DNA of 64,000 nt, from NCBI GenBank assembly GCA_050118655.1, contig JASFKL010000001.1, positions 186 to 64,185 of the forward strand, written 5' to 3'. The notes under the pieces are model-generated. The model saw only the letters and a list, made by a program, of their open reading frames with translations. It did no database searches and was not told the DNA's origin. Position 1 is the first letter of the stretch. The number at the start of each line of letters is the position of its first letter. The stretch is from Gammaproteobacteria bacterium. GTDB lineage: Bacteria; Pseudomonadota; Gammaproteobacteria; GCA-001735895. Of the stretch, positions 5,703 to 26,538 are shown piece after piece. Both the position numbers and the translations under genes were made by a program.

Positions 5703-7307
5703 TCAGCCGGCGTAGCCCGGGATTAGCGATTCGTCTATTTCGTCGATCTGCTCCGGATCGAGAAACTCCTCGGCGTAGTCGAGGTAAACCCGCTCGCGAA
5801 TGAAGATCTCGAAGATATCGGGATCGATGTGATTGTCCTTTTTCATGAATCCCATGATGCGCAGGCACTCGGACAGTTTCTTGCCATGCTTGTATGGCCG
5901 ATCGCTGGCGGTCAGGGCCTCGAAAATATCGGCCACCGCCATAATCCGGGCCTGTACCGACATTTCCTCCCTTTTGAGCCCGCGCGGGTATCCCGTGCCA
6001 TCCATTTTTTCATGATGTCCGCCGGCATACTCGGGTACGTTTTGCAAATTGCGGGGAAACGGCAGCGATTCCAGCATCTTGATGGTCGCGACGATATGGT
6101 TGTTGATGACTTCCCGCTCTTCATCGTTCAGCGTGCCGCGCTTGATACACAGGTTCATGACCTCGTCGTCGGTCAAAAGCGGCCGCGTCTCGCCGGACCC
6201 GTCCACCCATTCGAGCCCGGCGAGTTGCTTTACCCGGTCGATATCCTCGTCGCTCATGAATTCGCCGCCGACATTGGCCTTGCGCAAAAATTCGAAATCC
6301 TGCCGGTATTGCTCGCGACGGGATTCGAGATCCCTGTCCAGTTGTTCGACATCGGCCTTCGATCCGTTTGCCGCTAGACGTTTTTTCAAGTATTCGATTT
6401 CGGCGTCGCGCTGCAGGATCACGAAACGGGTTTCCAGCGCATTGATACGATCGTAAATCGTTTCCAGCTTGGTGGCCTTGTCCATCACGTACTCGGGGGT
6501 AACCACCTTGCCGCAATCGTGCAACCAGGCAGCGGTCTCGAGTTCGTAGCGATCCTTGTCGGTAATTCTGAAATCCTTCAGCGGCCCCTTGTCGTCCTGG
6601 TGCGCGGCCTCGGCAAGCATCATCGTCAATACCGGAATCCGCCGGCAATGACCGCCGGTATAGGGCGACTTGTCGTCGATCGCCGAGGCGATCATGCGGA
6701 TAAAAGATTCGAACAGGATTTGCAGTTCCGAGATCAGTCTCCGCTGGGTCAGCGCGACGGCTGCCTGGGAAGCCAGTGACTCGGCGAGTTGCTGTTCGAC
6801 GGCGCTGAAAACTTTGACCTCGCCGGTTTGCTCGTTCCTGGCATTGATCAATTGCAGCACGCCGATGATTTCCTTCTCGTGGTCCTTGAGCGGAAAGGTC
6901 AGCATGGAGCGGGTGCGGTAACCGGTCTTTTCGTCGAAGGCCCGCGTGCCCGAGAAATCGAAGCCGTCCTCGTTATAGGCGTCGGCAATGTTGATGGTTT
7001 CTCCGGACAGTACGCAGTGGGAGACGACGTTGGCATGGTTATCCTTGCCTTCGATCGACAGCGGTATCGCCGGAAAAGTGATTTCGTTACCCGAGGTACC
7101 GCCCATCTGTATATCGAGCGAATCGTTGGAAATGATCTCGAATCTGAGTTCGCCGTCGTTCAGAAAATACAGCGAGCCGCCATCCGCGTGGGTGAGCGAT
7201 TTTGCTCCCATCATGATCAGCTCGAGCAGCTTGGGCGTATCGTTTTCCGCCGACAGCGCGATGCCGATTTCATTTAACCGATCAATCCTGTCGAGCAATT
7301 CTGACAT
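5703..7307 (-). CDS. GAF-domain / HD-GYP-domain phosphodiesterase (probable c-di-GMP-specific)
   Basis: N-terminal GAF-like fold; HD motif AAWLHDCGKVVTPEY and GYP motif GGHHEKMDGTGYPRGL. Confidence 0.85.
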   Translation of the reverse strand: MSELLDRIDRLNEIGIALSAENDTPKLLELIMMGAKSLTHADGGSLYFLNDGELRFEIISNDSLDIQMGGTSGNEITFPAIPLSIEGKDNHANVVSHCVLSGETINIADAYNEDGFDFSGTRAFDEKTGYRTRSMLTFPLKDHEKEIIGVLQLINARNEQTGEVKVFSAVEQQLAESLASQAAVALTQRRLISELQILFESFIRMIASAIDDKSPYTGGHCRRIPVLTMMLAEAAHQDDKGPLKDFRITDKDRYELETAAWLHDCGKVVTPEYVMDKATKLETIYDRINALETRFVILQRDAEIEYLKKRLAANGSKADVEQLDRDLESRREQYRQDFEFLRKANVGGEFMSDEDIDRVKQLAGLEWVDGSGETRPLLTDDEVMNLCIKRGTLNDEEREVINNHIVATIKMLESLPFPRNLQNVPEYAGGHHEKMDGTGYPRGLKREEMSVQARIMAVADIFEALTASDRPYKHGKKLSECLRIMGFMKKDNHIDPDIFEIFIRERVYLDYAEEFLDPEQIDEIDESLIPGYAG

Positions 7308-25705: not shown

Positions 25706-25791
25706 TGGTGCGAAAGGAGAGACTCGAACTCTCACATCGTAAAGATACCAGAACCTAAATCTGGCGCGTCTACCAATTCCGCCACTTTCGC
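25706..25791 (-). tRNA. tRNA-Leu (TAG)
   Basis: Manual fold: 86 nt with long variable arm, begins GCGAAAGTGGCGGAATTGGTAGACGC, anticodon loop uuUAGgu, CCA encoded. Confidence 0.8.
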
Positions 25792-25892
25792 AGTCGTTTC
25801 GTGCCTGCCTGATTACCGGACGCCGTGCCGCGCTCCGCGTCGCCGCGCGGAGTCGAAAACTAACGGCGCCTGCATCGCAGGCGCCGTGTGTA

Positions 25893-25969
25893 TGGGGTGG
25901 ACGATGGGGATCGAACCCACGACAACAAGAATCACAATCTTGCACTCTACCAACTGAGCTACGCCCACC
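25893..25969 (-). tRNA. tRNA-His (GTG)
   Basis: Manual fold: 77 nt including the -1 G, anticodon loop uuGUGau, ends ...CCACCCCA as in E. coli tRNA-His. Confidence 0.85.
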
Positions 25970-25975
25970 ATAATT

Positions 25976-26052
25976 TGGCACGCCCGGCAGGATTCGAACC
26001 TGCTACCCTCGGCTTAGAAGGCCGATGCTCTATCCAAATGAGCTACGGGCGC
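25976..26052 (-). tRNA. tRNA-Arg (TCT)
   Basis: Manual fold: 77 nt, anticodon loop cuUCUaa, CCA encoded. Confidence 0.83.
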
Positions 26053-26055
26053 TTC

Positions 26056-26195
26056 GGATACCTCTCTCACGGCGTATTTTAGCCGATTGCTGCGTTGCCG
26101 CCGTGCTCGGATCCTCATGTATGTCTTTATACACTGCGGTCCTGCGCGCGGCGGCGCCTTGCACTCAACTAAAATACGCCGTGAGAGAGGCATCC
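26056..26195. repeat. About 140-bp element bounded by 27-bp terminal inverted repeats (1 mismatch; 22-bp perfect core CCTCTCTCACGGCGTATTTTAG / CTAAAATACGCCGTGAGAGAGG) with a nested inner IR; MITE-like or large RNA hairpin in the tRNA operon spacer
   Basis: Perfect 22-bp IR at 26061-26082 vs 26169-26190 seen directly; inner IR GCCGCCGTGC / GCGCGGCGGC; abuts the 5' end of tRNA-Arg. Confidence 0.6.
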
Positions 26196-26393
26196 TCCAG
26201 TTCAAATTCCGACCGGTCATCCTAAACCTTTTGTATCCCCGGATTGCCGCCGTAGGGGAGGCAACCTGGATTCGTCTTGCCGGCGATAATTCCATTAATA
26301 TACGCGCCAATCGCGTATTCGGATGCCGGGAACCTGCCGTTTCCTCGAACCCCCGATATCCGGGGTGCAATGATAGCAAATTCCCGACAAAAT

Positions 26394-26470
26394 TGGTCGG
26401 GGTGGAGAGATTCGAACTCCCGACCCACTGCTCCCAAAGCAGTTGCGCTACCAGGCTGCGCTACACCCCG
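26394..26470 (-). tRNA. tRNA-Pro (TGG)
   Basis: Manual fold: 77 nt, anticodon loop uuUGGga, CCA encoded. Confidence 0.85.
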
Positions 26471-26538
26471 TGTCACCCGCGCGGGCAAGGCGCGGAATCA
26501 TACGCCTAAGCCGACAGGCCGTCAATTCGACCCGGTCT

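Follow-up and report, generated by a model that had tools for sequence, protein, structure and literature searches.

A 64,000-nt stretch of gammaproteobacterial contig JASFKL010000001.1 (the window, whose numbering is used throughout) carries, in the spacer between its tRNA-Pro and tRNA-Arg(UCU) genes, a 140-nt palindromic element whose RNA, read on the strand of the tRNAs, is predicted to fold into a single long hairpin. It belongs to a hairpin family that is undescribed and absent from the RNA-family library Rfam 15. With moderate confidence, we read it as an old, immobile copy of a dispersed, ERIC-like hairpin family, kept by selection at the RNA level as a self-folding spacer module of the tRNA precursor. 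An earlier note on this DNA had proposed either an insertion resembling a MITE (a miniature transposable element with inverted repeats) or a long structured processing or termination element, and each half of this alternative stood in part. A mobile origin is supported at the level of the family, but not a recent or active MITE. A structure is indeed kept on the tRNA-sense strand, but the terminator part falls: the hairpin is followed by GAAGCGCCCG, and because there is no U-tract the element is not an intrinsic terminator. A terminator-like call at 26176-26193 proved to be merely part of the 5' arm of the hairpin.

The perfect 22-bp inverted repeat on which the note was based is present. Its arm CCTCTCTCACGGCGTATTTTAG lies at 26061-26082 on the (+) strand and at 26169-26190 on the (-) strand and nowhere else in the window, two matches against 0.00 expected in shuffled sequences. 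The extension of the arms to 27 nt with one mismatch was reproduced, and they reach 35 nt at 89% identity (26056-26090 and 26161-26195); the inverted-repeat search also recovered the nested inner repeat. By a wide margin, this is the longest and strongest inverted repeat of the window in an inverted-repeat scan. Folding of the minus-strand RNA, the check that the note had proposed, gave -94.7 kcal/mol, far beyond chance (shuffle mean -46.9, z -11.7, 0 of 200 shuffles as good). The predicted lower stem has 31 bp, with non-Watson-Crick pairs that are all G·U, and so exceeds the near-perfect duplex of about 20 bp that serves as the criterion for an RNase III site. The termini read GGAUGCC...GGUAUCC, with GA flanking each side. 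The parts of the hairpin are the following.

26056..26195, - strand (the tRNA-sense strand): hairpin element of 140 nt, from the inverted-repeat search, the fold and covariance models R1 and R2
26189..26195, - strand: 5' side of the conserved stem base, GGAUGCC, pairing with 26056-26062 and including a conserved G·U; 5 of the 9 pairs of helix 1 are invariant
26176..26188, - strand: 5' side of a fast-evolving 13-nt stem section, UCUCUCACGGCGU, pairing with 26063-26075
26155..26162, - strand: 5' half of the conserved internal-loop motif, GCAAGGCG, invariant in the clade
26104..26148, - strand: sequence-conserved apex, CGCGCAGGACCGCAG-UGUAU-loop-AUACA-UGAGGAUCCGAGCA, from the clade alignment
26089..26097, - strand: 3' half of the conserved internal-loop motif, CAACGCAGC, from the clade alignment and distant members
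26056..26086, - strand: 3' arm of the 31-bp lower stem, stopping 3 nt short of the tRNA-Arg 5' end
26196..26228, - strand: 33-nt stretch directly upstream of the hairpin, conserved with relatives and part of the module repeated in L086 (see below)

The apex holds two GCA/GA internal loops, and its apical stem is closed by a G·U pair. The hairpin adjoins the 5' end of tRNA-Arg with a gap of 3 nt (26053-26055), for which the note gave 4 nt. The spacer, estimated there at about 340 bp and called long, measures 341 nt, against 21-64 nt in more distant bacteria sharing the Pro-Arg-His order.

Orthologous loci, cited below by their L numbers, were gathered through relatives of the trigger factor (Tig; 80-84% identity), together with one metagenome match; they come from uncultured marine gammaproteobacteria. 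Among 185,579 species-representative genomes, the CysS closest to that of the source organism is 66% identical, and its trigger factor shares 80% identity with the homologue in the Olavius algarvensis Gamma3 symbiont. Contigs of the same population are 100% identical across the region. A homologous hairpin stands 2-3 nt upstream of tRNA-Arg(UCU) in five lineages, L086, L092, L094, L103 and L108-L110. The comparison of orthologous tRNA operons that the note had suggested thus finds the hairpin at the same position in five diverged lineages, the element sequences being about 80-85% identical between them. Conservation of sequence and position, which the note had named as the observation that would speak against mobility, is what is seen within this clade. 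The hairpin of L103 is about 200 nt long, with insertions in the apex, and that of L108-L110 has a 13-nt duplication in its 5' arm. In L092, part of the 5' half is lost in a 100-N assembly gap, possibly caused by tandem module repeats like those of L086 and L094.

Three lineages, L089, L106 and the Gamma3 symbiont (L099-L102), have no hairpin, and their spacers measure about 50-120 nt. Presence and absence interleave on a neighbour-joining tree of trigger factor, which suggests that the element is ancestral and was lost several times; one ancient gain followed by several losses would be the simplest history. Clean empty sites, which a presence/absence comparison of close relatives might have revealed, were not seen among these spacers. 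Instead, those of L089 and L099 retain GCAAGGCGG and GCAAGGCAG, respectively, the most conserved motif of the element, and for this reason the hairpin-less relatives look like deletion remnants rather than empty sites. This 9-mer occurs in hairpin-less Pro-Arg spacers at L089 1917-1969 and L099 1854-1973, and also at L021 5562-5597, in a distant Competibacteraceae metagenome-assembled genome (MAG). In such spacers, it could either be left over from a much older hairpin or belong natively to the spacer.

Seven hairpin copies from the clade were aligned (alignment A2) and scored against the structure predicted for the window copy. Of all cells, 93.3% pair, versus 26-43% when the partners are slid by 1-3 columns. 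Both sides have changed in 21 of the 55 pairs, and not one of 500 shuffles attained an observed measure. Within the clade, the outer 7 bp, GGAUGCC/GGUAUCC, are conserved. The next 13-17 bp are lineage-specific, with a partner arm that is always complementary (UCUCUCACGGCGU in the window, UUUCUAAGGGGCU in L086, CUAGGCCCCAGAU in L110), and a second stem of 7 bp is likewise variable in sequence and kept paired. In the internal loop GCAAGGCG/CAACGCAGC and the apex, CAGGACCGCAG-stem-loop-stem-UGAGGAUCCGAGCAC, the sequence itself is conserved. Between lineages, the terminal-repeat sequence is the least conserved part of the element and its interior is conserved.

The pairs that depart from Watson-Crick geometry are informative as to the strand. 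In the five complete hairpins, 23 such cells are G·U and 1 is A·C. The lower stem of L103 is held by lineage-specific G·U pairs, and its fold reaches -100.0 kcal/mol in the sense orientation versus -69.4 in antisense. Because each G·U would read as A·C on the opposite strand, the constraint appears to act on the strand transcribed with the tRNAs. Judged from these alignments, the structure is maintained on the tRNA-sense strand, which fits the reading of a structured element of the precursor.

Two of the relatives carry additional, damaged copies beside the hairpin. Upstream of its hairpin L086 has three further modules of about 135-150 nt each, and L094 has one.

L086 1381-960, - strand, and L094 137-262: tandem decayed modules with a period of about 135-150 nt

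These upstream modules retain a 5' arm without the 3' arm, and one of those in L086 carries the exact 13-nt stem section of the window, UCUCUCACGGCGU. Since the folds of the L086 modules are no stronger than those of shuffles (z -0.4 to +1.0) and the 3' arm is missing, they appear to be decayed duplicates. For the same reasons, we rejected the idea that they form a small-RNA array with variable 13-nt 'seeds'; an origin from tRNA pseudogenes was also discarded, ARAGORN calling nothing there. In both L086 and L094, the intact copy is the one abutting tRNA-Arg. That only this copy is intact is the best sign of the hairpin's importance to the precursor, and such an effect of position next to the tRNA is hard to account for at the DNA level.

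The hairpin has relatives outside tRNA operons. Covariance model R1, built from the copies of the clade, scored the window hairpin at 166 bits on the (-) strand versus 64 bits on the (+) strand, and it also matched in unrelated cysS loci of distant bacteria. The members found outside the clade are listed here.

L076, Desulfobacterales MAG: in the cysS-uvrB spacer, R1 49.1 bits
L173, P2-like prophage: between the small terminase (gpM) and head-completion (gpL) genes, R1 48.8 bits
L078, Thermodesulfobacteriota: weaker match, R1 28.4 bits
L008, Methylonatrum kenyense: weaker match, R1 26.4 bits
L068, Burkholderiaceae contig: marginal, truncated member

The distant matches share the unpaired motifs CAAGG, ACCGnAG, UGAGGAU and ACGCAGnnAU, beyond mere hairpin shape. 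The motif GCAAGGCG is shared with L173, L008 and L068, and is close to CAAGG in L076 and to AAGGCGGC in ERIC. The L173 apex, CGUAUCAGAGACAUACGUGAG, hardly differs from that of L094. The element takes up the 155-nt cysS-uvrB spacer of L076 (the identity of UvrB was confirmed) and is flanked by an exact 11-nt direct repeat, GACATTACCTA, which we take as an insertion signature because it duplicates the uvrB start region. At the family level, the hairpin is thus dispersed, with members in a tRNA spacer, a cysS-uvrB spacer and a gpM-gpL spacer, plus L008, L078 and L068.

A scan of viral contigs with a two-motif pattern yielded at least 120 stretches, most of them chance matches, of which 80 were fetched as loci (676 kb). 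Among them R1 matched L173 alone; as the other 79 of these 80 pattern-picked loci gave no match, R1 does not fire on ordinary hairpins. With a three-motif pattern, L173 was the only match over the viral contigs. Covariance model R2 was built from L110 and four distant members, excluding the window sequence. With it, the hairpin of the window scored 126.7 bits, matched on the (-) strand alone; the rest of the window and the hairpin-less relatives gave no copy. Across five distant members, 91% of cells pair and 45 of 55 pairs change on both sides, in an alignment that is model-fitted and leans toward the structure; the G·U closing the apical stem is invariant.

Several of these members have further palindromes around them. 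Those of L008 and L078 are nested in larger palindromes with perfect outer inverted repeats of 18-19 nt, GGGAAACACTGATTTATTC in L008 (2205-2223 / 2459-2477) and GATGGCAAAGTAAAAAGT in L078 (about 2944-2927 / 2755-2738, - strand reading), and a further GCAAGGCG motif, inverted, is present in L008. L173 has an unrelated near-perfect palindrome, GAGAGACTGGCTTTTTCAAAAGC...GTTTTTGAAAAGCCAGTCTTCTC, beside the family member in its gpM-gpL spacer, at 6317-6383.

Among described repeats, the closest analogue is ERIC. The 127-nt ERIC consensus that we used was verified in E. coli, where it was found at 92% identity in 5424 of 5426 genomes; two extra matches are the same yeiL-psuT locus. Like the element, ERIC/IRU/RU-1 of Enterobacteriaceae and Vibrionaceae is an imperfect palindrome of similar size (127 versus 140 nt) lying in intergenic DNA that is transcribed, presumably so in the case of the element. 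Both form a single long RNA stem-loop, both have orthologous copies that persist between species, and in both one strand folds better than the other (-60.0 versus -49.3 kcal/mol for E. coli ERIC). Shared motifs occur in the same order: terminal AUACC.../...GGUAU, AAGGCGGC, an apical AGC-stem-loop-stem-GUGA, and GAGC...CAACGCA. R1 and R2 align E. coli ERIC end to end, scoring 15.6 and 15.0 bits, as the top match of its locus (E 0.0045 in 3.1 kb). There are also differences. ERIC has 5'-TA-3' at both termini and a TA duplication (PMC3184786, PMC2229807), whereas the element ends in GGAUGCC...GGUAUCC, without TA. The hosts of the element family, uncultured sulfur-cycle gammaproteobacteria, Desulfobacterota and others, lie outside the known ERIC host range, and, unlike in ERIC, the apex is conserved and the stems vary from one lineage to another. 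ERIC may thus be a distant relative as well as the closest analogue, with no established family assignment.

Known systems also indicate what such a hairpin might do in a transcript. ERIC-type repeats are MITEs of about 127 bp that are co-transcribed with their neighbours, form long RNA stem-loops and alter transcript stability via RNase E (PMC3184786, PMC2229807); citing De Gregorio et al. 2005, these reviews describe the effect of the RNase E site as orientation-dependent. The Correia/nemis elements of Neisseria resemble ours in being 100-155 bp long with long inverted repeats and in being co-transcribed with genes. Their RNA hairpins are reportedly cut by RNase III (De Gregorio et al. 2002, 2003), and they offer a mechanistic model for the long duplex seen here. 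They have conserved terminal inverted repeats of 24-26 bp, TA duplications and hundreds of copies, none of which was seen here, and there is no sequence relation. Stable RNAs are released from tRNA operons, RtT from the tyrT repeats and 3'ETS-leuZ being examples. These, too, are structured or repeated non-tRNA segments of a tRNA operon freed by tRNA-processing nucleases, and RtT-type repeats share with L086 and L094 the tandem copies between tRNAs. The element differs in that it matches neither RtT nor any other family in Rfam, is a perfect long hairpin and is also found outside tRNA operons. The RNase III stems of rRNA operons likewise form a near-perfect duplex of more than 20 bp inside a stable-RNA precursor; they pair sequences flanking a mature RNA, whereas the element is a stand-alone spacer hairpin that encloses none.

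The operon to which the hairpin would belong lies on the (-) strand, as do its neighbours, in the order cysS, tRNAs, tig, clpP, clpX.

26497..26525, - strand: promoter-like site TTGACG-17-TATGAT upstream of tRNA-Pro, by consensus match only
26394..26470, - strand: tRNA-Pro(UGG), first gene of the operon, called by ARAGORN and Rfam
25976..26052, - strand: tRNA-Arg(UCU), directly downstream of the hairpin, called by ARAGORN and Rfam
25893..25968, - strand: tRNA-His(GUG), called by ARAGORN and Rfam
25706..25791, - strand: tRNA-Leu(UAG), called by ARAGORN and Rfam

No other promoter-like site was found by the same scan on the (-) strand from tRNA-Pro to tRNA-Arg, and we infer that the hairpin is transcribed within the Pro-Arg-His-Leu precursor, downstream of the only promoter-like site.

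The history and function that we propose would run as follows. The family would consist of dispersed palindromic hairpin repeats of 115-210 nt, with ERIC/IRU-type repeats as their closest described relatives. One copy would have lodged between tRNA-Pro and tRNA-Arg(UCU) before the marine gammaproteobacterial clade diversified, and would since have been transcribed as part of the Pro-Arg-His-Leu precursor. There it would form a hairpin with a near-perfect lower stem of 31 bp, two small internal loops and a conserved apex. Selection would act on the tRNA-sense RNA, letting the stems drift yet stay paired, with mismatches that are nearly all G·U. By sequestering 140 nt of the spacer, the hairpin could prevent interference with tRNA folding, and its long duplex could be offered to RNase III and/or to RNase E at a flanking site, as in ERIC. 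Cleavage by RNase P 3 nt downstream, at the tRNA-Arg 5' end, would release the hairpin and separate tRNA-Pro from tRNA-Arg-His-Leu. The structure, its strand, its conservation and dispersal and its repeated loss are what the data establish; co-transcription with the operon and any benefit to the host are deduced from the anatomy, and the nucleases by analogy.

Several points weigh against this proposal. The choice of RNase III or RNase E and of RNase P follows the analogies alone, and a mere processing stem does not explain why the apex is conserved across phyla. As three lineages have lost the hairpin, it is dispensable. In long palindromes, hairpin-templated repair can keep the arms paired without selection, and G·U would likewise be favoured over A·C by a C-to-T bias linked to transcription on the non-template strand. 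The strand that folds better lies antisense to the flanking genes in L076 and L173, from which it follows that the strand asymmetry of the family is partly inherited with the element rather than imposed by host transcription. The relationship with ERIC is only suggestive at 15.0-15.6 bits: nhmmer found no match between ERIC and the element family and blastn found none, and the global alignment gave z values of -0.5 to 4.8 in the ERIC '+' orientation.

Conservation of the apex could instead mean that the hairpin is a dedicated structured noncoding RNA, cut from the tRNA precursor with RNase P making its 3' end, and acting in trans. Its apex and GCAAGGCG/CAACGCAGC loop would then form a protein- or RNA-binding site, and the stem would be a stabilising handle. 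We consider such an RNA, and this division of labour within it, unlikely. Very distant bacteria share the apex and internal-loop sequences, whereas the stems covary, with both sides of most pairs changed and the apical G·U invariant in the model-fitted alignment; the covariance models are strand-specific; only the tRNA-proximal copy is intact; and RtT and 3'ETS-leuZ are precedents for stable RNAs from tRNA operons. Such an RNA fits poorly with the loss of the hairpin in three lineages and with the insertion-type direct repeat of L076. Moreover, the better strand is antisense to both neighbours in L076 and L173, where no clear promoter was seen by eye (no promoter scan was made of these loci). 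No Rfam family matches it, and the loci seen show no linked gene for a partner protein.

The main reading of the earlier note was a MITE-like insertion. Taken as an element that moves now or did so recently, this would be a non-autonomous transposon lodged in the spacer and served by a transposase encoded elsewhere, the hairpin being a by-product of its terminal inverted repeats. The element does have the size (140 nt, within about 100-400 bp), the inverted termini (27-35 nt) and the lack of coding capacity of a MITE. Family members stand at unrelated loci, one of them with the 11-nt direct repeat, and a weak possible duplication remnant, GAACCGA upstream versus GAAGCGC downstream, flanks the clade copies. 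Yet the flanks in the window show only a degenerate resemblance, GAAC(T)GGA / GAAGCGC, and no clean target duplication. The same site is occupied in five lineages by elements only about 80-85% identical, and hairpin-less relatives carry deletion remnants rather than empty sites. The termini vary and the interior is conserved, the reverse of what is expected of terminal repeats bound by a transposase. Within the DNA covered, copy number also speaks against it: no second copy was found in the window with a pattern allowing 3 mismatches, blastn-short, the inverted-repeat scan or the two covariance models, and none in about 113 kb of relatives' loci besides local tandem remnants. A 19-nt arm had no match in species-representative genomes. 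Among metagenome contigs it had three, of which only the L086 ortholog is homologous; those in L084 and L085 are single-arm and apparently due to chance, the latter overlapping an unrelated tRNA-Gly gene. A blastn search of plasmids and phages with the element and the prophage copy returned nothing. Taken with these results, a MITE that still moves, or did so recently, appears highly improbable.

Still less probable, in our estimate, is a role as single-stranded DNA, whether as a recognition site of HUH/Y1 type (REP/RAYT, IS200/IS605 ends) or as a single-strand priming signal, where G·T pairs would be tolerated. It would account for a better-folding strand that is a property of the element whichever way the neighbouring genes run; a P2-like prophage houses one member, and the palindrome has the size typical of such sites. 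However, L103 gained new G·U pairs in situ on its tRNA-sense strand, the intact copy always abuts tRNA-Arg, which is sensible for an RNA and not for DNA, and no transposase is found among the open reading frames (ORFs) of the 6.5 kb inspected around the element, the only part of the window so screened.

A coding function can be dismissed, since the 121-aa ORF at 26014-26379 overlaps tRNA-Arg, relatives have indels across the stretch, and all ORFs at the element are spurious and overlap tRNAs. So can a 6S, SRP or Y RNA-like identity: in an Rfam 15 search of the region with E up to 10 only tRNAs passed, and the best match overlapping the element, Metazoa_SRP, reached 12.6 bits against a gathering score of 70.

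Other features of the operon were observed in passing. The rest of the Pro-Arg spacer, about 165 nt at 26229-26393 on the (-) strand, is highly structured by prediction, with CCCCGGAUAUCGGGGG and AUACGCGAUUGGCGCGUAU hairpins, and a stretch of it, GGCAUCCGAA, resembles the 3' end of the element; neither a covariance-model match nor clear homology to relatives' spacers was found there. The gap between tRNA-His and tRNA-Leu holds a perfect, G+C-rich hairpin of 11 bp, ACGGCGCCTGC/GCAGGCGCCGT, with TAGTTTTCGA after it, at 25863-25887 (-). This hairpin is conserved in L086 and L088, and may act within the operon as a processing stem or as a weak terminator.

In several relatives, the orthologous tRNA-Arg(UCU) gene is split in the anticodon loop (ggccuU|...G|cuaagcc) by an insert of 220-400 nt: L089 1991-2214, L099-L102 at about 2006-2402 (the Olavius algarvensis Gamma3 symbiont), L106, L108-L110 and L088. 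ARAGORN calls no tRNA at these split genes. Over the full length, the insert matches the group I intron model RF00028 with a score of 31.3 bits (E 2.3e-6), which falls short of the gathering score. The hairpin is absent in 3 of the 4 intron-bearing lineages with an intact spacer and kept in 5 of the 5 intron-less lineages. In L088 (1-400), the 5' half of the intron-containing tRNA-Arg is replaced by an AT-rich ORF-like stretch, which lies upstream of the 3' part and may be an intron-borne homing endonuclease or a rearrangement.

ERIC-type palindromic repeats have been used in typing for 35 years. The locus described here is a natural experiment on such a repeat, in which one copy, fixed in a highly expressed tRNA operon, can be followed through diverged lineages. 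It displays strong compensatory evolution on the transcribed strand, repeated loss, and the decay of duplicates except the one touching tRNA-Arg. Relatives of the hairpin point far beyond the enterobacteria, to Desulfobacterota and a P2-like prophage, and share a loop and an apex found in no RNA-family library. A broader idea, which we rate as rather improbable, is that the GCAAGGCG/CAACGCAGC loop and conserved apex on a covarying stem define a widespread, unnamed class of structured RNA, of which ERIC would be one enterobacterial branch and which would have been co-opted here to control the maturation of tRNA-Arg(UCU). Such a class would be common to Gammaproteobacteria, Burkholderiaceae, Desulfobacterota and a P2-like phage. 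Its conserved core would function as an RNA module, whether by binding a protein or as the signal for the element's own propagation, and ERIC-type repeats would gain an RNA-level function and a deep origin. If the finding of relatives outside the enterobacteria is not confirmed, the locus would be a well-documented case of a repeat domesticated, or merely tolerated, as a spacer hairpin of a tRNA precursor. If it is confirmed, the family would count as a new candidate structured RNA and might be deeply related to ERIC.

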